Assembly: GCA_035331565.1 (NCBI GenBank)
Contig: DAOLKO010000010.1
Coordinates: 15,682-79,681 of the forward strand
Direction of reading: 5' to 3'
From: Blastocatellia bacterium
GTDB taxonomy: Bacteria > Acidobacteriota > Blastocatellia > RBC074
Length of the DNA stretch: 64,000 nt
Of the stretch, positions 38,727-51,099 are shown piece after piece. Within the stretch, counting starts at the first letter, position 1. Every line of letters starts with the position of its first letter. A model generated the notes under the pieces. It was not told the DNA's origin. It saw only the letters and a program-made list of their open reading frames with translations, and did not search any database. Both the position numbers and the translations under genes were made by a program.

Positions 38727-38770
38727 AATGGGCTTGGCTGGACTCGAACCAGCGGCCTACTGCTTAGGAG
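38727..38770. repeat. attL-like 44-nt direct repeat, identical to the 3' half of tRNA-Arg at 51024-51067.
   Basis: aatgggcttggctggactcgaaccagcggcctactgcttaggag is present at both sites. The sequences diverge immediately afterwards. Confidence 0.8.
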
Positions 38771-38937
38771 TCTAATGCCGCCCATTTTCCTGACCTGTCT
38801 GAACATTTCTTACCTCTTCAAAAGCCTGTAAATACTGCATTTTTCTTGCCTGCATTATTCACTATCTCTCCCGACTTGTCATCTGATTGTGTTACGATGT
38901 GTGTCACAAGACAGATTAAACTTTCGGGAGAAGCATC

Positions 38938-40068
38938 ATGCCAAGACAACGGACTGGTTACGTTTGGTACTGGAAAGAACGCAAATCCTGGTATGCCCGC
39001 CTGACCTTCACGGATGCCAGCGGCAAACGGCGCAATGTCTGCCGCTCCGTCGAAAACAAAACCGAAGGCAACAAACTGCTCAAACAATTGATCCGGGATT
39101 TGGAAGATAACGGCGAGAAAGCGTTGGATTCCGAAAAGCTGACCTTTCGCCAACTCGCCAAGCTTTACTCCGACCGCAAACTTATCGCCGCTGAATATCA
39201 AGGTGACACGAAAGTGCGCGGATTGCGCTCGCATAAAAACCAGCAAGGGTATCTGAAAACACTGGTTGACCATTTCGGCGGGCTGCGCGTGCGCGCCATC
39301 ACGCACAGCGACCTGGAAGATTACCGAGCCAAACGATTGCAAACCATAACCCGACGAGGCGCGCAACTCAGCGCGGCCAGCGTCAACCGGGAATTAAGCC
39401 TGATGCGCGCGGTTTTGAATTTTGCCCGGCGACAAGGCTGGCTCAGCCGAAATCCTTTTGATGCGGGCGATCCGGTTATCAAACCCGCCGACGAAGTGAA
39501 GCGCGAGCGCGTGTTGACGTTTGAAGAAGAAGGGCGGTTGTTACTGGCTTGCGCTGCACCGCGCGAACATTTGCGCCCGATGCTGATTTTCGCGCTTGAT
39601 ACCGGCTTGCGGAAATCCGAAATGCTGGCTTTGCGCTGGGCCGACGTTGACCTTGAATCCGGGATGATTCGCGCGCGTAGCTCGACCACCAAGACGCGCA
39701 AAGCCCGAACTATAGGTATGACTTCGCGCCTGAAAGCCGAGCTTGAGCGAATGCGAGAGTCGGCGGGCGATGATCCTGAATCGCGCATCTTCAACCAGAA
39801 AGACATGAAGCGCTCCTTTGCGACGGCTTGCGAACTGGCCGGTGTTGAAAACCTGCACTGGCACGACCTGCGCCACACCGCGACAACGCGAATGGTTGAA
39901 GTCGGCCTTGCGCCGATGATTGTCATGAAGCTGACCGGCCATACTCAGATGGCAACCTTTGCCCGCTACGTCAACGCCAACGATGAAGCGGCGACCAAAG
40001 GCGCGGAAGCTCTCGACGCTTACCGGCAAAACGCTCTCGGCGAAAGCACGCCGGAGAGAATCAACTGA
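38938..40068 (+). CDS. int: Tyrosine-type site-specific integrase.
   Basis: C-terminal HDLRHTATTRMVEVG...ATFARYVN carries the R-H-R-Y catalytic signature. It is adjacent to the att repeat. Confidence 0.85.
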   Translation: MPRQRTGYVWYWKERKSWYARLTFTDASGKRRNVCRSVENKTEGNKLLKQLIRDLEDNGEKALDSEKLTFRQLAKLYSDRKLIAAEYQGDTKVRGLRSHKNQQGYLKTLVDHFGGLRVRAITHSDLEDYRAKRLQTITRRGAQLSAASVNRELSLMRAVLNFARRQGWLSRNPFDAGDPVIKPADEVKRERVLTFEEEGRLLLACAAPREHLRPMLIFALDTGLRKSEMLALRWADVDLESGMIRARSSTTKTRKARTIGMTSRLKAELERMRESAGDDPESRIFNQKDMKRSFATACELAGVENLHWHDLRHTATTRMVEVGLAPMIVMKLTGHTQMATFARYVNANDEAATKGAEALDAYRQNALGESTPERIN

Positions 40069-40175
40069 AACGGCTTCGGCTCGCCTTACGCCTGATTAGC
40101 TACCCGGCGGACAGCGGTGAAACCTTCGCTCCGTTGGAGAGCCGAAAACACGAAGGACACCTGGAAGGGGAGACA

Positions 40176-41450
40176 ATGCAAAATGAGCAAGAGTTTCGTC
40201 AGATCATAGAAAGGATTGATGAAGTGACGCGGGCGCTTTTGCAAGTAAGGGATTACAAGGCGGAGGCGATTGACCTTAATGGTGCAGACGCTCCTTTGAA
40301 ACTTCTAGCGCGAACTTGGCGGGACACTCAGTTACCAAGTCAGTCTGATGAAAAGCTCGCCAATATGATACGGCAGCGGTTAGAGGAAACATTATCTCCA
40401 ATCTTGTGGATTGCTACGGGACAAATAGTTTCTGGTGCGCTCGAATACGCTACGCGCGAAACTGGGGCAACCGTAATGCCCACCTTTGATGGACTTTCAA
40501 GGGTGGGCATAGCTGAGCAACCATATTCCGAAGATGAAGAAGAGGTTTGGTTGATTGGTTTAGCGGAGAGAATACGAATAAAAGGAACGCTTCAGGTGAG
40601 CCTAAATTGGGGAGAGATTGAATCTATTCTTGATGATTTTTTTGGCTCGTCTCTTTCAGCGTGTAAAACTGAGCAAGAAGCAAAAACGGCTTGGAATAGC
40701 TTTCTCAAGAAGGAGCAAAAGCACCTCAAAAAAAGAATGGGGGATTCACCGGTAGAAAAAATCGTAGAGACCAACCGGAAGGTTGAAATGCTGACGGATA
40801 AACAAAGAGAGCAGATGCGAAGCGATCTGGTAAAACTCGCTTCGCAAAACTTCAAATTAAACATAGATCACGTTATTCGTTGTGCTATTGCGGCCAATCT
40901 GTTCTTGAGCCTGGTGTATTGGGAATACGCTTTTGATCGTGAAAAAGGAAGAGCCGAGAAGGAAGTTCAGCAATCACTGCCCGGAGTAGAAGAACTAAGA
41001 GACATAATAGGTAAGAGATTGAATGACTGGCTTATTCAACCGCTTCCAAAAAGACCGCGCCTAGGTAAACAAGCAAAAGCTGATTTAAGCCAACTGCGCC
41101 AGTTTTACGAGGAAGTTATTGGGGATTGGCGTGATGCCTTTAGCTTCTGTCGTGAGGCTCTCAATTCTCGTTCAGCAACCCGCCGTGCAACTTGGAAAGA
41201 AGACCTCAAAAAATACTATCCCAGTCTGCGAGATTACGACGATTTGATTGAGCGGCTACAGCCCATAGAGAACTGGCCAGAGCAGGTAGCTGCGAAATGT
41301 TCAGAGCAGGGGGGCGAGGATAAGCCTGAAGACATCGCTTACGAACATGCTGCACGACTATGCGACGCAGCCAATTACACGTACAAGCTGTCTTCGCTTA
41401 TTGAGGAATACCGCAAGCAAGGGCGACAAAAAAAAGAAGAAAAAGAATGA
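40176..41450 (+). CDS. Island-encoded hypothetical protein (~425 aa, acidic, AT-richer).
   Basis: ORF with a GGAGA RBS before ATG 40176. No recognisable domain. Confidence 0.45.
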   Translation: MQNEQEFRQIIERIDEVTRALLQVRDYKAEAIDLNGADAPLKLLARTWRDTQLPSQSDEKLANMIRQRLEETLSPILWIATGQIVSGALEYATRETGATVMPTFDGLSRVGIAEQPYSEDEEEVWLIGLAERIRIKGTLQVSLNWGEIESILDDFFGSSLSACKTEQEAKTAWNSFLKKEQKHLKKRMGDSPVEKIVETNRKVEMLTDKQREQMRSDLVKLASQNFKLNIDHVIRCAIAANLFLSLVYWEYAFDREKGRAEKEVQQSLPGVEELRDIIGKRLNDWLIQPLPKRPRLGKQAKADLSQLRQFYEEVIGDWRDAFSFCREALNSRSATRRATWKEDLKKYYPSLRDYDDLIERLQPIENWPEQVAAKCSEQGGEDKPEDIAYEHAARLCDAANYTYKLSSLIEEYRKQGRQKKEEKE

Positions 41451-41665
41451 AAATTTTGCACTCGACCAACACCACACAATTTAGAAAAAAAAGAATTGAG
41501 ACTTCTGAAAAGCTTATCAGTTTGGCCTAAATTGCAGGTTGAGGTAACTCAAGACGATCTGACAAAACAGTGGGCAAGAGCCGTTCGATTTCTGAGGCCG
41601 CGCGGCACTTGCCCTTGACCTAAACCCGCCGCTTTTGGCGGCAAAGCACAGGAGTTTTTTAAATT

Positions 41666-41896
41666 ATGTCCCAAGTGTCTTTTGAAGCCAACACCAGCCC
41701 AAAACAACCAATCCTCGAAACCGCTGTCTACGGGCGCGACGAGGCAATCGCTATCACCGGCTTTTCGCTCTCGACGCTGATCCGCGCCGAAGAGAAAGGA
41801 AAGCTGCGAGGTCGCTACGAAGGCCGTCGCCGATTTTATTTCGGGCGCGATCTGCTGCGCTGGCTGGGAGCCTGCGAGGAAGGAGGTGCGGAGTGA
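41666..41896 (+). CDS. AlpA/excisionase-like small HTH DNA-binding protein.
   Basis: 76-aa product. DEAIAITGFSLSTLIRAEEKGKL is an HTH resembling phage AlpA/Xis. Confidence 0.55.
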   Translation: MSQVSFEANTSPKQPILETAVYGRDEAIAITGFSLSTLIRAEEKGKLRGRYEGRRRFYFGRDLLRWLGACEEGGAE

Positions 41897-42195
41897 AGTC
41901 AAAAAACCAAAAGCCGCCAGCGGCGGGAATCGCTGACGGCTCTCGAAATCGAACTAAAAATTACGAGCCGGATTCTGCCACGCTGCGCCGACAAACGGCA
42001 ACAACAAATTTGCCGGAGTGCCCGTGTCCCGTATGCGCGCGCAGTTATCGTTACGCATGGGGCTGGTTGATGGTGCTGCCGACGGCGCGAGTCGTTGACC
42101 TGTGCGCGTATTGCACGCGCACTTTGCGCTACGGCTCAGCGTCGGAGCGTCAGGCAATTGCCGACGCGATTGCAACGCGGGAGGTGGCACTATGA
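41893..42195 (+). CDS. Small Cys-rich protein (putative zinc-ribbon).
   Basis: CPCPVC...CAYCTR is a four-Cys arrangement. Its stop overlaps the primase ATG (ATGA). Confidence 0.35.
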   Translation: MKSKNQKPPAAGIADGSRNRTKNYEPDSATLRRQTATTNLPECPCPVCARSYRYAWGWLMVLPTARVVDLCAYCTRTLRYGSASERQAIADAIATREVAL

Positions 42196-44801
42196 ACAGG
42201 CTTGATTACGCGAAAGACTATCAAGGCAGGGGCTACACGCCTCTGCCGCTTCCACTCAAGGCGAAGAATCCAGGTTTTCATGATTGGCAGAAATACCAGC
42301 CGGTTAATGGCCGGCTTGAGCGTGATTTCAGCAACGAAGGCAACATCGGGTTGCTACTCGGCAAACCGTCGGGCTGGCTGATTGACGTGGATTTGGATTG
42401 GCCGGAATCGCAAAGGCTCGCGTCTGCTTTCCTGCCTGAAACGACAGCCAAAAGCGGGCGTGAATCCGCGCCGCTGTCGCATTACTGGTATCACTGCGAA
42501 ACCGGAACGAAGAAGTTCAGCGATCCGACCAAGCCGGGCGGCGACGACCAGCGCGCGATGATTGTCGAGCTTCGGTCAACGGGATTGCAGACGGTTGTCG
42601 AGCCAAGCATTCATCCGTCTGGCGAGCGGTACGTCTGGCAAGGCGAATTGATGCCCGCGCAAATTGACGCTGCAACGCTTCAACGCGCGGTTGCGCGGTT
42701 GGCGGCGTGTGCGCTTGTCGCTCGACATTGGCCGCAAGGCCGCCGACACGATGCGGCGCTGGCGTTGGCCGGTGCGCTGTTTCGCAACGCCTGGGCGCGC
42801 GCCGATGTCGAGCGGTTCATACTGTCGGCGGCTGGTGTGGCGGGCGATGAAGAAATCGAAGACCGCAAACGCGCCATTGCCGACACGGAAGAAAAGCTCC
42901 GCAGAGGCGAACACGTGACCGGCTTGCCAACCTTGTCGGAGTTCATCGGCGAAAAGACCGTCGGCGCGCTGGTCAAATGGTTAGGGCTGACAGCCCAGCC
43001 GGAAAAGCCTGCCGAAGCGATAAGCAATCAATCACGCGAGCCGGTTGCCTGCCCTTACAAAGCCAACGGCATCGGCCTGGTGTGGCTGAAGCCCGTCGCC
43101 ACAAGAGACGGCGCGGCGGAGCCGCTTGCCGTTCAGCTTACCAACTTCATCGCCGAAATCACTGGCGAAGTGTGCCGCGATGATGGTGCGGAGCAAACGC
43201 GGGTTTATGAGATTACGGCGCAGCTTGCGGGCGAAACCGCTTCGCACAAAGGCGCAGTCGTTGCCGAAGAGTTCGGCCTTTTGAAATGGCCCGCCACGAT
43301 TTTGGGCGCAAGGGCTGTCATCTATCCGAGCAAAAAAGAGCATACCGGCGTAGCGATTCAACTCTTGTCGCGCAAGATCGAAAGCCGTCGTGTCGTGGCT
43401 CATACAGGCTGGCGCAACGATGGCAACGGCTGGCGTTATTACCACGCGGCGGGCGCAATCGGCGCGGAAGGACTGATTGACGCCGAAGTTGAGTTGCCGA
43501 CTGCGCTGGCGGCTTATTCATTGCCTGCGCCGCCAGTGGGCGAAACGCTGAAGGATACAGTATCGGCAGTCATTGGGCTGGCCGGTGTGGGGCCGGATGA
43601 TGTGACGCTGCCCACGTTGGGCGCAGTTTGGGCAAGCGTGCTGACGGGCGCGGATTTTTCTATTTATCTAGCCGGGCGCACAGGCAGCGGGAAAAGTATT
43701 TTGACGGCGCTCTTTCTGTCCTTGTTCGGCTCCGGCTTTGACTTCAACGCGCTGCCCGCGTCGTGGTCTTCAACCGGCAACAGCCTGGAATCGTTGGCGC
43801 ACGCGGCAAAAGATTGCGTGTTAGCCGTTGACGATTTTTGTCCGCAAGGTTCGGCGGCAGACCAAGCGCGATTGCAGGCAGCGGCGGATAGAATCTTCCG
43901 CGCACAAGGCAACCATTCCGGGCGATTGCGTTGCCGGACAGACGGAACGGTCAGAGCGGTCAAACCGCCGCGCGGTCTGATTCTCTCGACCGGCGAAGAT
44001 ATTCCGCACGGCCAGAGCCTGCGCGCTCGCACGCTCATCCGCGAAGTCGTCAGGGAGTCGTTGGACTGGCCAGCCATCACAGAGGCGCAAGCAATCGCTC
44101 GGCAAGGCGTTTACGCGCAAGCAATGGCCGCTTTTCTGCAATGGCTGGCGACTGGCGACCGAATCGAAAAGCTTCGAGCATCTGCGCCGGATGATGTTTC
44201 GCGCTGGCGCGAAGAATGGACAACGCGCGGTCTGAATGGTCACAAGCGCAATGCGTCAACGCTGGCTCAATTGGCGCGCGCCTGGCATTGCTGGCTCGGT
44301 TTTGCCTGTGAAGCCGGAGCCATCACGCCCGAAGAGAGCAAGAAGCTCTGGCGGCGCGTGTGGGCTGCGCTGGATGCGGCGGGCAAAGGGCAGGAGCAAT
44401 ATCAGGCGAGCGAGAATCCGGCTTCCCGCTTCATTGAATTGATTCAAGCTGCGCTGGCCAGCGGCAAGGCTCATCTGGCGGCGACAGACGGCGGTAAGCC
44501 GGATTCTGCCGATGCGCAAGCTTTTGGCTGGCGCGATGGCGAACCGCAAGGGGAACGAATCGGATGGCTTGACGGCGACGACCTGTATTTGCAACCGGAT
44601 GCGGCCTATTTATTGGCTCGGCGAATGGCGACAGATGGCGAAGGGCTGACCGTGTCGAGCCAAACGCTGTGGAAACGACTCAACGAAGCCGGGTTGCTGG
44701 CTTCGACTGATACGGCGCGAAAGACCAATAAAGTCCGCAAAACAATCGCCGGAAAATCTAATCCGGTGATTCATCTGCGGTCGGAAATTTTCGCCGGGTA
44801 G
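42192..44801 (+). CDS. Replication protein: N-terminal bifunctional primase-polymerase-like domain plus a central P-loop NTPase (D5/DUF3987-like).
   Basis: Start at ATG 42192 after GGAGGTGG. The N-terminus YTPLPLPLKAKNPGFHDWQKY...GLLLGKPSGWLIDVDLD is Prim-Pol-like. Walker A is AGRTGSGKS and Walker B LAVDDF. Confidence 0.65.
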   Translation: MNRLDYAKDYQGRGYTPLPLPLKAKNPGFHDWQKYQPVNGRLERDFSNEGNIGLLLGKPSGWLIDVDLDWPESQRLASAFLPETTAKSGRESAPLSHYWYHCETGTKKFSDPTKPGGDDQRAMIVELRSTGLQTVVEPSIHPSGERYVWQGELMPAQIDAATLQRAVARLAACALVARHWPQGRRHDAALALAGALFRNAWARADVERFILSAAGVAGDEEIEDRKRAIADTEEKLRRGEHVTGLPTLSEFIGEKTVGALVKWLGLTAQPEKPAEAISNQSREPVACPYKANGIGLVWLKPVATRDGAAEPLAVQLTNFIAEITGEVCRDDGAEQTRVYEITAQLAGETASHKGAVVAEEFGLLKWPATILGARAVIYPSKKEHTGVAIQLLSRKIESRRVVAHTGWRNDGNGWRYYHAAGAIGAEGLIDAEVELPTALAAYSLPAPPVGETLKDTVSAVIGLAGVGPDDVTLPTLGAVWASVLTGADFSIYLAGRTGSGKSILTALFLSLFGSGFDFNALPASWSSTGNSLESLAHAAKDCVLAVDDFCPQGSAADQARLQAAADRIFRAQGNHSGRLRCRTDGTVRAVKPPRGLILSTGEDIPHGQSLRARTLIREVVRESLDWPAITEAQAIARQGVYAQAMAAFLQWLATGDRIEKLRASAPDDVSRWREEWTTRGLNGHKRNASTLAQLARAWHCWLGFACEAGAITPEESKKLWRRVWAALDAAGKGQEQYQASENPASRFIELIQAALASGKAHLAATDGGKPDSADAQAFGWRDGEPQGERIGWLDGDDLYLQPDAAYLLARRMATDGEGLTVSSQTLWKRLNEAGLLASTDTARKTNKVRKTIAGKSNPVIHLRSEIFAG

Positions 44802-44805
44802 GGGT

Positions 44806-45065
44806 CTAGTGGAGAAAACCCGACAAACCCGACATTTGGGCAAAAACGGTTTCAATGTCGGGTTTTCGTTGTCGGGTTTTTCGGAGAATCTGGCGAAAAT
44901 GCCGAAAATGCGGCCACAGAAACTAAGTCCCTTCAATAGTTTACCAATCAATGTCGGGTTTGTCGGGTTTTCTCCACATAAGAGCGGTCTGGGATAAATT
45001 CCAGGCGTTCAATGTCGGGTAGGCTTCAAAAAGCCGACACCAAAACCCGACAAAAACCGACAAGG
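44806..45065. repeat. Iteron-like block with at least 10 copies of the CCGACA/TGTCGGG heptamer in both orientations.
   Basis: Representative copies are aaacccgacaaacccgacattt, caatgtcgggttttcgttgtcgggttttt, caatgtcgggtttgtcgggtttt, caatgtcgggtaggc and gccgacaccaaaacccgacaaaaaccgacaagg. Confidence 0.6.
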
Positions 45066-45082
45066 AATAGGGAGCGGGCAAA

Positions 45083-45493
45083 ATGGGAAACGAGATTTTG
45101 ATTGAAATTGAGAGGCTTTCCACAAAGCAACAACGAGCGATTGAAGCGTTGTTGACCGAGCCAACAACGCGCGCAGCGGCGGCTGCGGCAGAGGTCTCCG
45201 AAGCAACAATCTGGCGCTGGCTGGCGGAGCCGGAATTTTCTATTGCGTATCGTGCGGCGCGTGGGCGCTTGCTGGAATCCACGTTGACGGCGTTGCAATC
45301 GGCCAGCGTGGATGCCGTGGTTTGTTTGCGCGAAATTCTGAACGACAAAACTGCGCAGGTTTCCGCTCGCGTCAGCGCGGCCAAGTCGGTTCTGGAACTC
45401 GGATTGAAGGCGCGCGAAGTTCTGGAAGTTGAAGAGCGGCTGGCTTACCTGGAAAAGGCGTTGGAACTCAAAAACGCAAAGAGGAGTGCATGA
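45083..45493 (+). CDS. HTH-domain protein (regulator or terminase-small-subunit-like).
   Basis: AAAAAEVSEATIWRWL HTH followed by a coiled-coil C-terminus. Confidence 0.4.
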   Translation: MGNEILIEIERLSTKQQRAIEALLTEPTTRAAAAAAEVSEATIWRWLAEPEFSIAYRAARGRLLESTLTALQSASVDAVVCLREILNDKTAQVSARVSAAKSVLELGLKAREVLEVEERLAYLEKALELKNAKRSA

Positions 45494-45993
45494 CGACTGC
45501 AAGAAGACTTTCGGCGATGGAGCCGCTGATTGAACCCGAACGAGCATTGCTTCGCCATAACCGGGCAATTCTGCTGTCGGCAATTCCCGAAGTGATGGCC
45601 AAGCTCGGAAAGACCGAAGAAGAGGCGCGGCGGCTTTTGTTGCTACTCTGGTCGCCTGAAGAAGCGGCGCTGGCGGCGGATGATTGGGAAATCAATCCGC
45701 TGGCGCTGGACTTGCTCAAGAAGCTGAATCAGCCCAACGGACGGCAGAAGCTCATCGAATCGGGCTTGCAACGGGGAGCGGATGCGTTTGGCCTGAGTGT
45801 TGAAGATTTGATTTGTCTGGTTTGCCTTGACCCGCGTAACTCTCTGGCGTCCAAGCTGGAACTGGTCAAAATCGCCAACGAACGGAAGATGCCCGCAATC
45901 CTTTTGAAGCTTCACGGCGAAAATCCGGTTGAACGGATAGACCGCCTTGCAGATAGTGTGGCTAATCACGTTGTAGATGACCTGACTGGATGA
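45490..45993 (+). CDS. Island hypothetical protein.
   Basis: ORF coupled to the upstream gene by an ATGA overlap. Confidence 0.35.
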   Translation: MTTARRLSAMEPLIEPERALLRHNRAILLSAIPEVMAKLGKTEEEARRLLLLLWSPEEAALAADDWEINPLALDLLKKLNQPNGRQKLIESGLQRGADAFGLSVEDLICLVCLDPRNSLASKLELVKIANERKMPAILLKLHGENPVERIDRLADSVANHVVDDLTG

Positions 45994-46100
45994 CGAATCG
46001 CCGGGCACGACCAGCCCCGCCAAACTGTAGAATTTTTCTTGCCTCAGCCCGCGATGCGGCATAGACTCCGCGCGTCATCAAACGATGCTCCCCCCGCGTC

Positions 46101-47027
46101 TTGCCAAAGCCCTTAAATAGCTTAGCTATGGAAAACTATAACTATGCGGCTATCCTCCTCGGATTAGCATCCTGTTATTTCTTCCTGTTTCTGGTGCCCT
46201 TTTCAATTTCCTGCATAATTATTTATTGGATTCAACCTCTGTCCCGAAATGCATTTCTGCTCGTCTCGCTCTTACCTTGTTTAGCAGGAACACTATTGAC
46301 GCAGGATTGGAAGTTGGAGGCAGCTATAGTTTTCGCATTGTTCCAATTCAGCATCATAGGTTTCCTGGAATTGTGGATGCTGTTTTTGTTTTTCCGAAAA
46401 TTGATCAAGCCACCAATAACATATATGTCAACACCACCTTTACCAACAACACAATTAAAAGAACCGATTCCGCCAGATTTCGATTTTGAATTTTGGAAGG
46501 ATCGGCTAATTGATCGCACCATCAGAAGCTACCTATCAGACACGCAAAAGCAACAATTGAACGACCTTCGCTTAAGTGATACTCAGCGGGATCAGATTAA
46601 GTACGGCACAAGGCCGCCCCAAGAGATAAATGATTTTTTGGAAGATGCAATAAAAGATGTCGAAGTTGCGGTCACTAACGACGACGGTGAAGCCTTGCGA
46701 AAGGCTATTGAACAAGCTCATCAGAAACTTACAAAATTTGAATCAGAGAGGGTAAAGAGAAGCAACGAGTTCCTTAATAAGCTTACAAATTCGTTTCGCC
46801 GAGCGAATGGTGCTCCTATAGTTTTTGTTGGCTTATTCATAATTGCTTTCGGGTTCTTGTTTTCAAGAGGATATAGCCAATCTATGGGAGTCTTGGGAAG
46901 CTTGCCGCGTATGGTTGTGGACGTCGGCAACCTCAGCATTGCAACCAAATGGGTATTACTTTTTGGGATTGGGCTGTGCCTTTGGGGATTTTACGCGCGT
47001 TTTAGTGATACTCAGAAGAATAACTAA
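46101..47027 (+). CDS. AT-rich integral membrane protein of unknown function.
   Basis: Four N-terminal TM helices, a central charged coiled region, and two C-terminal TM helices. The DNA is strongly AT-rich. Confidence 0.45.
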   Translation: MPKPLNSLAMENYNYAAILLGLASCYFFLFLVPFSISCIIIYWIQPLSRNAFLLVSLLPCLAGTLLTQDWKLEAAIVFALFQFSIIGFLELWMLFLFFRKLIKPPITYMSTPPLPTTQLKEPIPPDFDFEFWKDRLIDRTIRSYLSDTQKQQLNDLRLSDTQRDQIKYGTRPPQEINDFLEDAIKDVEVAVTNDDGEALRKAIEQAHQKLTKFESERVKRSNEFLNKLTNSFRRANGAPIVFVGLFIIAFGFLFSRGYSQSMGVLGSLPRMVVDVGNLSIATKWVLLFGIGLCLWGFYARFSDTQKNN

Positions 47028-47030
47028 AAC

Positions 47031-47849
47031 TTGTTCAGAGGGTTCGCTCTAATGATCAATATGGATACTAAGCAGCTAAAAACTATGTTTTGGAGCTTGG
47101 CATTAGGCGCATGCGGTTTCTGGATTTGGCTTAACCAAGGCGGAAATCCTATGCCTGATTTCTATTTACTAGATGATGCGGTTATTGCCAAAGGGTATAT
47201 TGTTGAAATTACTGAGAGTGCTGGTGAAGAGGGCGACAGTACTTTTACCGCCGAATATCAATTTAAGCTTCCTGACGGTCGAGAGTTAACTAATCGAACA
47301 GACAAGTTTGATGAAGAAATCATCGAACAAAAAATGCCATATCCCATTGAAATTGAATATTACAAAGCTAATCCAGAAATCAACAGGATCAATGGAACTG
47401 GAAGTCGCACATTTACAGAGTGGCTTTGGCGAAGTTTAGGAGGAGGAGTTGTTTTGCTCGCATTATGCTTAAGTCCAAGCATCTGGTTATTCCGATGCGG
47501 TTGGCAGGACATGAGACAAAAACGCGAAATTAAAAGCCGGAAATTGAGAAAAGCTCAGAAGAAAGCGGCCAAGCGACTGGTGAAAGGAGCGGCGGAGGCT
47601 GCGCAGCTAACCTCTATACAGCAGGAAGCCTCACAGATGGCCGATACGCCGACCAACATTCAGATACCGGATCGGGAGCAATTTCCGCCGGGTATTCTGG
47701 GGGATAGTATGTATCGGATGTCTGCTGACCGTGTGCGAAAGTTGTTGGCGAGGGAGGCCAAAAGGGCGGCGAAGGCTACGAAGCCTACGCAACAAGTTAC
47801 TCAAGCGGATGCAGATGAGACAACGTCAAATAACTTCAAAACCAGGTAA
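47031..47849 (+). CDS. AT-rich membrane protein with a DUF3592-like topology (TM, beta-domain, TM, then a Lys/Ala-rich tail).
   Basis: TM1 WSLALGACGFWIW, then a ~100-aa soluble domain, then TM2 LGGGVVLLALCL, then a basic tail. Confidence 0.4.
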   Translation: MFRGFALMINMDTKQLKTMFWSLALGACGFWIWLNQGGNPMPDFYLLDDAVIAKGYIVEITESAGEEGDSTFTAEYQFKLPDGRELTNRTDKFDEEIIEQKMPYPIEIEYYKANPEINRINGTGSRTFTEWLWRSLGGGVVLLALCLSPSIWLFRCGWQDMRQKREIKSRKLRKAQKKAAKRLVKGAAEAAQLTSIQQEASQMADTPTNIQIPDREQFPPGILGDSMYRMSADRVRKLLAREAKRAAKATKPTQQVTQADADETTSNNFKTR

Positions 47850-48358
47850 TAACTTGAACTTTTCTTGCTGACTTGCCTACTGGCGCTCAATTGGCGCAAT
47901 GTGGGAGTGCTTACCATACCAGCTAATCCGCATGTAGAATCTGTCAAGCGAATAGTCGCCCACTGACCGGCAACCGCGAGGCAGCGCAAATTCGCCCAAC
48001 GAAAAGCCGCTCGACTTTTGCTGGGTGGTCTTTGTTTTGTCATTTCTCTTTGGCTCAATATGCGTTTCTGGGAGCTATACCTAAAGCAACCGTTTGAAGC
48101 TCTGATTCTTAAGGACTTATGTCGCTAGTCAAAGACTCGCTCCTTGAAACAGCTATTGAGCCTTCTCTTTTCCTTCACAGCCTCGACTCCGGCGGCTTTT
48201 CCCTTGCCTTATCATCCACCCCCAACGCTTTCAACACGCGCTCAAACTACGCGTTATTGCTTTCCCATTTAGTGAAGTTTGTGACCGAGGGGCTTTCGGG
48301 TTTTCAGCAATGGTCACCAATAGCGGCAAGCAAGATAATGTCTCAGCCTATAGCGATT

Positions 48359-48904
48359 TCAGGCGTAGGCAAGTTCGGATTCCAGCCGGTAAGAGTAGCG
48401 CGCCGGTTTGTGCGGATTGACCAGTAAAGCCATCGCATCCGATCTTTGCAGGACGATGGCGGCGAGTTGGTCGGCGACGTGGGCGGGAATGGCGCGGCCT
48501 TGCTTTTCCGCTAGTAGGTAAAAATACATCAGCCGCATCAGCGAATCGGCTTGCGGGCCGATGGTCTGCCCGCCATTTTCCCACCGTGAAAGTGTGGCCG
48601 TGTCTATGTGAAGGTAGGCCGCCCATTCCTTCGCCTTCAATCCCAAATGTTGGCGGAGAAAGCGAGCTTCTTTGCCGGACAGCGGCTGACTCTGCAACGC
48701 GATGGCCTGGCCGATGGTGGCGTGCAAATCGTTGATGCGGGGAATGCGCGGAGCAACCTCGCCGCAAGCTTCGCAGACGCGCACGTCAATGTTTTCCAGG
48801 TAAACGTTATCCAATCCGCATTCGGTATAGTGGTAGCGTTGCTCACGTTTGATGACCGTCTCGGCTTTGCACATTTCGCATTTCATAGTTTGTTGCTCCA
48901 TCAA
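48359..48904 (-). CDS. MqsA-like antitoxin: N-terminal YgiT-type zinc ribbon plus C-terminal XRE HTH.
   Basis: CEMCKAE...CEACGEV is the Zn ribbon. LSGKEARFLRQHLGLKAKEWAAYLHIDTATLSRWENG is the HTH. Confidence 0.65.
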   Translation of the reverse strand: MMEQQTMKCEMCKAETVIKREQRYHYTECGLDNVYLENIDVRVCEACGEVAPRIPRINDLHATIGQAIALQSQPLSGKEARFLRQHLGLKAKEWAAYLHIDTATLSRWENGGQTIGPQADSLMRLMYFYLLAEKQGRAIPAHVADQLAAIVLQRSDAMALLVNPHKPARYSYRLESELAYA

Positions 48905-49206
48905 AAAACCGTCACGATGTAGAGCGTCATGTCTGATTCGATAATCAATGTAATGGCGATCAATTCATCGCCGTCAATGTCTTCGCCTTCGACGCGATAT
49001 TTCCAGTTGCTGTAAACGTCGTCCCATTCCGGCGCGCGGCGAATCTGGCCAAGTTTTAACGCATTGACCACATCCAGCATTGTTACGCCGCGCTTCGGCA
49101 TTGATTCGCGGCGGCAGTGAAACGAAAGCTCCACCGTGCCATCGTTGAGAATGACCAGAATCTTGTCTTTGGCTTCATCGGCGGAAAACGGATTCGGCTT
49201 GCTCAT
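48901..49206 (-). CDS. DUF4258-family toxin partner.
   Basis: 101-aa product located upstream of and overlapping the antitoxin by ATGA. Composition is GVTMLDVVNALKLGQI...LIAITLIIESDMTLYIVTVF. Confidence 0.5.
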   Translation of the reverse strand: MSKPNPFSADEAKDKILVILNDGTVELSFHCRRESMPKRGVTMLDVVNALKLGQIRRAPEWDDVYSNWKYRVEGEDIDGDELIAITLIIESDMTLYIVTVF

Positions 49207-49357
49207 TGGTTCACTCTGTTTGCCTGCGTTGCTCCCAGTGTCTTTACGCTTCTCTACGTTTCCATAGTTGGCAGCTTAGCAAGACTTGACAATATGTCAA
49301 TTGATGGATTGGCCGCCCAGTCACTGACCGGGCGGCGTTATAAGGTGAATTTCCGGC

Positions 49358-49918
49358 TTATGTCAGCGGCTGAATGCGGGCAATCAAGGCGTCGAGTTTG
49401 GCCGCGTCGTTTCCTTCCGTGGCTTTTCTCGCTGCGATCTTACCGACGACCAGCGCGCTGAAATTGGCCAGCGTCTGGCGCTTCGCCGCGCGCCATTCCT
49501 TCGCCGACAAATAGCAGCAATACGGCTCGCGCTCCCTTCCCTGCTCATCGTAGAAGCGAAGATTGACGCGAAAACCGGCATCCGCCAACCGCACGCGAAA
49601 TGACATCCTTGAACCGGCTTTGACCGTCCAGGATTCCTGTCCGTTCCGGCGCGATTCTCGGATTTCCAGTTTTGGAAGCTTTGTTGCTGCATTTGTTGGC
49701 CTTCCGTTTTTTTTCGGGCTAGCCCGACTTGGCGCGTTTTTGTCGTCAATTTTCGCTGGTTTCGGGCTAGCCCGGCTTTCGGCTCTCGGGGTTGGCGTCG
49801 AGACTCGCGCCGATGATGTGACCGGCGACGGCGGGGCATCCGTCTCGGTCAGGGCAGGGGCATCATCAGCGCCGGTCAGTTTCCCCTTTCTTGTCCCGTG
49901 ACATCTTTGCCAGGCCAC
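49358..49918 (-). CDS. Island hypothetical protein.
   Basis: ORF whose start overlaps the end of the upstream membrane-protein gene. Confidence 0.3.
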   Translation of the reverse strand: MAWQRCHGTRKGKLTGADDAPALTETDAPPSPVTSSARVSTPTPRAESRASPKPAKIDDKNAPSRASPKKNGRPTNAATKLPKLEIRESRRNGQESWTVKAGSRMSFRVRLADAGFRVNLRFYDEQGREREPYCCYLSAKEWRAAKRQTLANFSALVVGKIAARKATEGNDAAKLDALIARIQPLT

Positions 49919-50691
49919 GTTACGGGCGGCTTCGATTGTTGCCGGGCAAGCAAAGCTTCGTCTTCGGCGATCTTCCGTCGCGCTTCGTCTACGTCGTGGC
50001 TGTCAATCTGGCCGACGATCTGCGCCGCGCGGTCAATTGCCGCCTTTGTCGCCATTCGTTTGACGGCGGCTTTCACTTCCGGCGCGTCAATCCCTTCGCG
50101 GTATGCGCCGATGATCTGTTCGCGCTGTTCGCGTTGAATCTGCCGCCATTGCGCGTTGTATTCGGATTCGGCTTCGAGCGTGGCAATCCGCTCCTGTGAA
50201 TCCGGGTGCAAGTCGAGCAGCCATTTCCACAAATAGGGAACGGCGACAATCGAAAGCGGCAGGATATACCGCACATAAAAGAGCAGGGGCGCGGGCAGTT
50301 CGGATGAGCCGAACCAGCCGCCGTCACTGTAACCGATGGCAAATTGCGCCAGCGTGTTGATGGCCAGCACTCCCCAGACGCCAAACGAGGCGATGAAGCC
50401 CAGCCGCCGCTGTTCGCTGCCCTTGAAGAAATACAAGCGGCCAAGCGTCAGGCCGATGGCTGTTCCTTCGAGCAGGACGACCGGCAGCCAGCTTGCCACG
50501 TCGAGCCAGTCCGCGTAGAGCTTGCTGCCTTTCATTCCATTGTAGGCCAGACCGTGTGTCTGAATGGCGGTGACGATCACGCCGACGGCGATCATCAGCC
50601 AACTGATGACCATTCCCAGCCCGTTGCCGGACTTCTCGACGGAATCAGAAATGCGCTTGGCGCGCTGTTGGTATTTGTCAAAATCTTTCAT
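49876..50691 (-). CDS. Island membrane protein (five or six TM helices plus a coiled-coil C-terminus).
   Basis: Start at ATG 50691 (MKDFDKYQQ) preceded by GGAG. The core is hydrophobic. Confidence 0.4.
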   Translation of the reverse strand: MKDFDKYQQRAKRISDSVEKSGNGLGMVISWLMIAVGVIVTAIQTHGLAYNGMKGSKLYADWLDVASWLPVVLLEGTAIGLTLGRLYFFKGSEQRRLGFIASFGVWGVLAINTLAQFAIGYSDGGWFGSSELPAPLLFYVRYILPLSIVAVPYLWKWLLDLHPDSQERIATLEAESEYNAQWRQIQREQREQIIGAYREGIDAPEVKAAVKRMATKAAIDRAAQIVGQIDSHDVDEARRKIAEDEALLARQQSKPPVTWPGKDVTGQERGN

Positions 50692-51025
50692 GGTTGCTTT
50701 CTCCATTGGTTGAGGAGTGCTAACCTTACTTTGCGAAAGGCTGTTAGCACTTCGGTGTTGATAGTTGTCCGGGCTTGTGGAGAGTTGACGCTTTCCGCAA
50801 GCCCTTCGCATTTAAGAAAGAATAATTCAGCCGGAGGGAACATTGGCCCTGAAACCAAAATTCCACCAGCCTTTTTTCGCGTTTGGAATAGACGAGAGAG
50901 TTCAGAGGTGAAGACACCGAAAAATGTGATTTTGGTGGCGTATGTGTTACGGAACGTGTTACGAAGGGTATAAAAAGAAAAAAGCTTGGCGCTAGAAGTT
51001 GCGCTAAGCTCTTTAGAATCAATAA

Positions 51026-51099
<74 letters not shown>

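Follow-up and report, generated by a model that had tools for sequence, protein, structure and literature searches.

The subject of this report is a dense array of short repeats in a 64,000-nucleotide stretch of a Blastocatellia bacterium contig (DAOLKO010000010.1, positions 15,682 to 79,681; hereafter the window), where it fills the interval between a gene for a fused primase-helicase, Pri-Rep, and a gene for a small helix-turn-helix (HTH) protein. Our analysis indicates that this array is, with high probability, the origin for vegetative replication of a 12.3-kb integrative island in a soil acidobacterium, and that it is built like the origins of staphylococcal pathogenicity islands (SaPIs) and phage-inducible chromosomal islands (PICIs). 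A first-pass annotation of the same DNA had proposed an origin of replication from the letters alone. That proposal gains support from the association of the array with the primase-helicase gene, from arrays of the same kind in the corresponding place of 53 out of 79 homologous loci, and from the C-terminal domain of Pri-Rep, which models as the winged helix of SaPIbov1 Rep.

The array occupies the 281-nt gap that separates the Pri-Rep stop codon, ending at 44801, from the HTH-gene ATG at 45083 (gap 44802-45082), as the first-pass annotation had placed it. The hexamer CCGACA occurs here ten times between 44820 and 45062 (243 nt), with five copies on each strand. The whole 64-kb window contains 53 copies of the hexamer versus 34 expected from shuffles, and from the density elsewhere in the window 0.16 copies would be expected in 243 nt versus the ten seen (Poisson P ~3e-15). 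Eight of the 12 exact copies of the heptamer CCCGACA in the window fall inside the array, and within the island (38727-51067) the exact heptamer is confined to the array, with no second CCCGACA cluster. The earlier reading of at least ten heptamers in approximately 260 nt thus holds as to the existence of the array but not as to its composition, which is eight exact copies plus two one-base variants (AAAGCCGACA and AAAACCGACA). The complete repeat unit, or iteron, reads AAA(A)CCCGACA and measures 10-11 nt with a core of 7 bp. Four further CCGACA hexamers stand within 197 nt of the primase coding region (42743-42939); these have neither the A-tract nor the CCC flanks that mark the iterons, and they probably reflect chance or codon usage.

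The iterons are laid out in the order ++ -- [72-nt spacer] -- - +++, so that four lie to the left and six to the right of the spacer, with both orientations present on each side. The first iteron begins 15 nt past the Pri-Rep stop codon and belongs to a plus-strand tandem pair at 44816-44834 (AAACCCGACA twice, at 44816-44825 and 44825-44834, with 9-nt spacing) that is invariant in eight related loci. Two minus-strand iterons (TGTCGGGTTT) follow at 44856-44879, with copies at 44856-44865 and 44870-44879 and a spacing of 14 nt. The central spacer (44880-44951), our proposed melting region, is 57% A+T versus 47% for the island and is variable among relatives, with insertions and deletions. To its right are a minus-strand tandem pair at 44952-44970 (TGTCGGGTTTGTCGGGTTT, copies at 44952-44961 and 44961-44970), which is the module most widely conserved in the family, a lone minus-strand iteron at 45013-45022 (TGTCGGGTAG), and a plus-strand triplet at 45030-45062 consisting of AAAGCCGACA (45030-45039), AAACCCGACA (45043-45052) and AAAACCGACA (45053-45062). 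The last iteron ends 20 nt before the start codon of the HTH gene. Tandem direct pairs had been recognized in the first-pass annotation and are confirmed here, but tgtcgggttttcgttgtcggg, quoted there as an inverted pair, consists of two direct copies on the opposite strand, and its inversion holds solely with respect to the first pair.

In every close relative examined, a CCCGACA array is found directly after the pri-rep stop codon, whatever the next gene may be. In locus L002, whose Rep is 90% identical to that of the window, the array is followed by a gene resembling those for the terminase small subunit (TerS), as it is in L003 (Rep 70%, TerS-like gene 62% identical). Other genes intervene in L001 (Rep 89%), where an extra gene of ~98 aa precedes a TerS-like gene that is 49% identical while the iterons are unchanged, and in L093 (Rep 72%), where a 147-aa gene precedes a TerS-like gene that is 74% identical. 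A DUF6788-type zinc-ribbon gene occupies the position in L007 (Rep 87%), which carries TIR and type I restriction cargo; L092 (Rep 85%), with family-B DNA polymerase cargo, has a DUF6788-type open reading frame (ORF) before the called 322-aa gene; and a DUF6788 gene likewise follows the array in L091 (Rep 58%). No TerS-like gene was found within 6 kb of the array in L007 or L092. An alignment of eight arrays (58-90% Rep identity) has invariant columns almost solely in the iteron cores, whereas the spacers diverge with insertions and deletions. Ten distant loci, with Reps of ~40% identity, have TGTCGGG repeats that begin 1-13 nt past the stop codon, with an integrase gene coming next. L064 and L068 have their TerS-like gene upstream of the primase, and in L068 a TGTCGGG pair is still present after the primase stop. 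An automatic choice of the first downstream gene as the longest ORF picked wrong frames in GC-rich DNA and serves here solely as a sign that the neighbours vary. The array travels with the primase-helicase gene and not with the downstream HTH gene. Because it remains tied to the 3' end of pri-rep while its neighbours change, an origin is favoured over a site read by the TerS-like protein or an operator. The L002 contig (JAJNQA010000015.1) is labelled 'Heliomicrobium sp. MAG_31' (Firmicutes), whereas the other close relatives are Acidobacteriota; mis-binning is the likely explanation of this label and recent transfer a less likely one.

The same arrangement extends well beyond the close relatives. 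A metagenome scan with the Rep alignment returned 80 loci, and together with loci fetched earlier it provided a survey set of 79 loci in which the sequence continues for 250 nt or more past the conserved C-terminal domain. Five or more copies of a single 7-mer, counted on both strands within -60 to +450 nt of the end of that domain, were present in 53 of these 79 loci (48 of 74 distinct ones) versus 2.2% of 1046 background windows taken from the same loci, and several further loci keep at least a tandem pair. The sequence of the iteron is not constant: at least 15 different iterons occupy this fixed position in Rep homologues, including CCCGACA, CGGCCCA, C(C)TGACCA, ACCGTCC, AGTGGGGACAG, ATGGGCA, GGGATCA, CGGGAACAG and CGGGGCAA. 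The last of these is found in L005, whose Rep is 55% identical to the window Rep and whose layout is the same. The downstream HTH protein of L005 was considered as a TerS-like homolog and rejected, having no significant similarity to the window protein (E 1.5), and for that reason L005 cannot separate a Rep-read from a TerS-read array. Sibling islands with Reps 55% identical and with CCCGACA versus CGGGGCAA iterons occur together in the metagenome-assembled genome (MAG) GCA_035330305.1 (L095 and L006) and in sample ERZ27268160 (L098 and L005), which suggests co-resident replicons of separate specificity or, possibly, a binning artefact. In many distant relatives (L010, L011, L015, L016, L022-L025 and others), the Rep frame stays open through the array and stops 100-500 nt past the conserved C-terminal domain; either the protein is extended at its C-terminus and these arrays lie partly within the extension, or GC-rich DNA has left the frames open by chance. 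A positive control with two Streptococcus satellites (Javan138 and Javan147) yielded no clear array after the rep-like genes, although very short AT-rich iterons may have been missed by the search.

A second conserved element accompanies the arrays. The motif TCAA-N4-TTR, present in the window as TCAA-N4-TTA (TCAATAGTTTA, 44933-44943, plus strand) 19 nt upstream of the tandem pair, keeps an exact distance of 19-20 nt from the start of that pair, on its upstream side, in eight of 28 distinct CCCGACA-type arrays (those of the window, L001, L002, L007, L030, L053, L060 and L091) versus 0.36% of background windows. Versions with one mismatch stand at the same offset in about nine more arrays. The motif resembles WATCAANNNNTTR, the consensus of integration host factor (IHF), and it may be a bending site.

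Pri-Rep (42192-44801, plus strand, 869 aa) is the proposed initiator. It combines a PrimPol domain (Pfam Prim-Pol, 2e-11), a DUF927 helicase (1e-7) and a C-terminal winged helix, and a Blastocatellia (Acidobacteriota) MAG encodes the same protein at 100% identity. The proposed iteron reader comprises the C-terminal 133 residues (44400-44798, plus strand). The last ~130 residues are conserved in the family as a helix-turn-helix plus wing with the pattern ...LYLxPxAAY..AQ...GExLxVSxQTLxKRLxExGLLASxD..R.T..VRR.I.G....VLHL. An AlphaFold2 model of this domain, built on a 14-sequence alignment, has a mean predicted local distance difference test (pLDDT) score of 88, and its best match among solved structures is the winged-helix domain of SaPIbov1 Rep. 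The residues of the turn and the wing vary between iteron types. In pairs of loci that share an iteron, winged-helix identity is higher by 0.08 after regression on helicase identity, and none of 2000 label permutations reached this value; the regression may remove shared ancestry only in part. From the model and these covariations we infer that the C-terminal winged helix reads the iterons.

The arrangement parallels that of the SaPIs. The C-terminal winged helix of SaPI Reps binds 6-12 short (5-6 nt) iterons immediately 3' of rep; a central AT-rich region lies between the iterons, the helicase loads itself without ATP-dependent loaders, and binding to the cognate origin has been shown with other SaPI origins as controls (PMC9371898). 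As in SaPIbov1, SaPI1 and SaPI5, the iterons described here lie just 3' of rep, in both orientations and on two sides of a central region. Their number, ten, is within the SaPI range, and each side has at least two in opposite directions. A helicase initiator with a C-terminal winged helix, here a modelled one, is common to both, the fusion of primase and helicase recalls the SaPI5 PriRep, and in both groups related elements bear different iteron sequences. By analogy, Pri-Rep would be expressed from the gene that ends just ahead of the first iteron, and its winged helix would bind the ten iterons in both orientations on either side of the 72-nt spacer. The protein would then oligomerise to hexamers on the iteron blocks, possibly aided by a bend at TCAA-N4-TTA. 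The spacer would melt, the helicase would load itself, the fused PrimPol would prime, and a host polymerase would copy the excised circle. DNA binding, melting, self-loading, replication and any helper-phage dependence are in this scheme all predicted steps.

Several observations weigh against an origin of this kind, and some of them are also differences from the SaPIs. The spacer is only modestly AT-rich, and extra iterons are found inside it in L003, L091 and L093. The iterons that flank the spacer share one orientation, so that the layout is no simple mirror image. The unit, with its 7-bp core and 10-11 nt including the A-tract, is longer than the 5-6 nt of the SaPI iterons. The sequence similarity of the helicase is marginal (E 0.004-0.085), with E 0.0039 in a profile comparison to the Cch protein of SCCmec (5DGK) and E ~0.07 to SaPIbov1 Rep (8TCH). 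All 13 contigs with an identical Rep represent the integrated form, and a search for an excised-circle contig gave integrated copies only. The island is present in the metagenomes ERZ27268127, ERZ27268160 and SRR3501862. Since the array ends so close to the TerS-like start codon, the right-hand iterons could possibly have a second role in expression or packaging. Further differences from the SaPIs are the acidobacterial host and the TCAA-N4-TTR motif at a fixed distance from the tandem pair.

The proximity of the downstream gene raises the possibility that the array is a packaging recognition site (pac, or similar to lambda cosB), bound by the TerS-like HTH protein to start packaging into helper-phage capsids. 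The gene 20 nt beyond the last iteron matches four terminase-small-subunit families in PHROGs, TerS-like genes recur in these elements, and the IHF-consensus-like motif sits between repeat blocks; an IHF site also lies between the repeats of lambda cosB. The comparison of relatives nevertheless makes this an unlikely explanation. L007 and L092 retain an intact array although no TerS-like gene lies within the 6 kb inspected, L091 retains it too, and it is kept in the ten loci in which an integrase follows. Iterons are unchanged in L001 in spite of a TerS-like protein of only 49% identity. In L064 and L068 the TerS-like gene has its place upstream of the primase, with the TGTCGGG pair of L068 still 3' of the primase, and the homolog in Streptococcus satellites does not adjoin rep.

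An equally improbable reading is that of an operator array, through which a regulator (the AlpA-like HTH_17 protein described below, or Rep acting as repressor) controls the downstream late genes and which has no role in replication. The position directly upstream of the next gene, near its ribosome-binding site, would suit an operator, and read-through control is conceivable because no terminator follows the primase gene: a terminator scan returned four weak terminator-like sites, none of them in the array, none convincing in the gap and none after the primase gene. Against this reading, the promoter scan found no promoter-like (sigma-70-like) site in the 44802-45082 gap, and the downstream gene changes among relatives while the array stays fixed at the primase 3' end. 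The HTH_17 protein is divergent or without a tblastn match in L001 and L003, where the iterons are identical. Ten sites in both orientations around a spacer are, moreover, origin-like rather than operator-like.

Two further possibilities are remote. Arm-type integrase sites of attP might be suspected, as the array is directly upstream of the integrase gene in the ten distant relatives and an IHF-consensus-like motif is present; in the window and close relatives, however, the integrase gene and attL lie ~6 kb from the array (att repeats at 38727 and 51024), and the integrases are 23-53% identical while the iterons are identical. The distance of several kb between the array and both attL and attR speaks against arm sites, as does the divergence of the integrases under constant iterons. 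A partition centromere (parC/parS-like) stabilising an extrachromosomal form, which the first-pass annotation had offered next to an origin, is just as hard to sustain, given that searches of Pfam, PHROGs and NCBIfam revealed no ParA, ParM or TubZ-type gene in the island, that the element is integrated and has an integrase, and that the array is tied to the helicase-primase gene.

With the array taken as an origin, the island as a whole resembles the PICIs of Gram-negative bacteria. In these, int, alpA, pri-rep and ori are co-directional, two iteron sets flank an AT-rich region, and the cloned pri-rep-ori of EcCICFT073 drives plasmid replication (PMC6092414). In the window the order is int, AlpA-like gene, pri-rep, array and TerS-like gene, all on the plus strand, with the AlpA-like assignment being weak; Gram-negative PICIs such as EcCICFT073 likewise have accessory or packaging genes after ori. 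The position of the origin 3' of pri-rep, the two iteron sets, the att sites and a similar island size add to the likeness: 12.3 kb is within the ~10-15 kb of PICIs, the element has its own att sites and integrase, and no structural or lysis gene was detected. A difference is the TerS-like gene, which has relatives in Streptococcus satellites and whose PHROG matches (E 9e-7 to 2.5e-3) are not accompanied by a Pfam terminase match above cutoff.

Comparison with other replicons places the system further. Satellite P4 encodes the alpha protein, in which primase, helicase and C-terminal origin-binding domain form one polypeptide; its short iterons occur in both orientations, the satellite is tRNA-adjacent, and it requires in cis a further cluster of iterons, crr, that is several kb distant from ori. 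The island shares the single-polypeptide arrangement of primase, helicase and (here predicted) origin binder, the bidirectional short iterons and the integration in a tRNA gene, but it has no second CCCGACA cluster. Sequence comparison gave no match to P4 alpha, whose origin-binding domain was also absent from the top structural matches of the C-terminal model. The Cch and Cch2 proteins of SCCmec (DUF927, MCM-like helicase) differ in that the 5DGK helicase chain is without a fused PrimPol, while here both are in one protein. Iteron plasmid origins (RepA/pi/RepE type) have a Rep_3-type initiator and directly repeated iterons of ~17-22 bp; our island differs in having no Rep_3-like Pfam match and iterons of 10-11 nt in both orientations. 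A similar protein architecture is that of the PrimPol-PV1 supergroup of Kazlauskas et al. 2018, described as primase-polymerase, DUF927-type ATPase and C-terminal winged helix in tRNA-integrated elements (PMC5862659). That architecture and the tRNA-gene integration are common to both. In the portion of that paper considered here, the winged helix is predicted to recognise the origin and cognate origins are not described (PMC5862659), whereas candidate DNA sites are identified and compared in the present analysis.

The design of the proposed origin is a known, SaPI/PICI-like one; it is expected biology and involves no new mechanism or principle. In the library searched by text, no paper connected Acidobacteria with phage satellites or PICIs. 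With some reservation, as we judge it slightly more apt to fail than to hold, we put forward a wider proposition: that a large clade of replicative satellite-like islands exists in soil bacteria (Acidobacteriota and others), that its PrimPol-DUF927-winged-helix initiator has diversified into 15 or more iteron specificities which differ between co-resident islands, and that an IHF-like bending site is retained in its origin at a constant distance from the core tandem pair. If this were true, the design of the SaPI/PICI replicon would extend to a phylum without reported satellites, perhaps together with the phage-satellite lifestyle; if confirmed, a self-loading primase-helicase with an iteron-reading winged helix would reach Acidobacteriota, a major soil phylum that is hard to culture. 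The value of the system lies in this extension of a replicon type to a soil phylum and in the pairs of winged helix and iteron, since the paired set of variants and their likely DNA sites could serve a study of the recognition code. Compact rep-plus-ori cassettes could become candidate replicons for genetic tools in Acidobacteria, and repeated 7-mers just 3' of a PrimPol-DUF927 gene provide an annotation rule for origins in metagenomes.

A number of other features of the gap were considered. An Rfam scan of 44300-45500 (E <= 1) returned no match. A 62-aa ORF at 44809-44997, across the array, was rejected as coding because the insertions and deletions of relatives are not multiples of three. 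A 28-nt perfect inverted repeat (44809-44836 and 44950-44977) encloses the two tandem pairs (++ at 44816, -- at 44952). Its interpretation as a conserved hairpin or cruciform was abandoned, the arms not being complementary in L091 and L092 and the structure not being established. In L003 (8640-8665 and 8785-8812) the flanks of the inverted repeat change matchingly, from GGAGAAAAC and GTTTTCTCC to GAATAAAAC and GTTTTATTC, which is not the case in L091 and L092. A candidate DnaA box beside the tandem pair, TTCTCCACA, has one mismatch to TTWTNCACA, and no DnaA-box claim is made for it because ~0.4 such chance matches are expected in the gap. Both versions of the inverted-repeat flank resemble a DnaA box (TTCTCCACA and, in L003, TTATTCACT), a resemblance that is not significant alone.

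Two perfect copies of a 44-bp direct repeat, at 38727-38770 and 51024-51067, mark the boundaries of the island. The left copy (attL) duplicates the 3' part of a tRNA-Arg gene, and the right copy (attR) forms the 3' part of tRNA-Arg(CCT) (51026-51099, minus strand); the repeats and the tRNA together define the 12.3-kb integrated island. The integrase gene is at the island end distant from the intact tRNA-Arg. Upstream of Pri-Rep and on the same plus strand are the tyrosine integrase (38938-40068; Pfam Phage_integrase 3.5e-26, phrog_1 1.5e-61), an unannotated 438-aa protein, a small HTH_17 (AlpA/excisionase-like) protein and a 100-aa protein. The HTH_17 match (41666-41896) is weak, with a Pfam E of 7e-4 that falls below the curated cutoff and E 2e-3 to phrog_66 (excisionase/regulator); PF12728 is found in the genes at this position in L003, L007 and L092.

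The HTH gene downstream of the array (45083-45493, plus strand) encodes the TerS-like protein of 136 aa, for which no Pfam terminase family scored above cutoff. In a collection of 50,697 phage records, all 34 of its matches were 'Streptococcus satellite phage Javan' records, at 36-44% identity, and a scan of viral contigs with the protein gave no relatives. In the Streptococcus satellites the homolog is situated in the late region and not beside the rep-like gene (L089 5814-6173, L090 9550-9918). Searches of the island reading frames with Pfam, PHROGs and NCBIfam found no phage structural, lysis or large-terminase match, NCBIfam matched none of nine island proteins, and several proteins are unannotated. 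The first-pass annotation had suggested a phage-plasmid or a satellite. We favour the satellite, and consider a phage-plasmid the poorer fit, because the element is an integrated 12.3-kb island without a detected structural, lysis or large-terminase gene, with TerS-family matches and with relatives in Streptococcus satellites.

The right part of the island contains a cargo pair resembling a toxin-antitoxin system on the minus strand (48359-49206), with a DUF4258 protein at 48901-49206 and an MqsA-like HTH antitoxin at 48359-48904. Sister islands with the same Rep/origin module carry different cargo: pentapeptide and TIR proteins plus a type I restriction enzyme in L007 (10519-14799), SocA/Panacea, TIR and methyltransferase proteins in L005 (6501-11686), and the family-B DNA polymerase in L092 (12521-14695). 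Downstream of the origin there appears to be a hotspot for cargo, much of which consists of defence genes.

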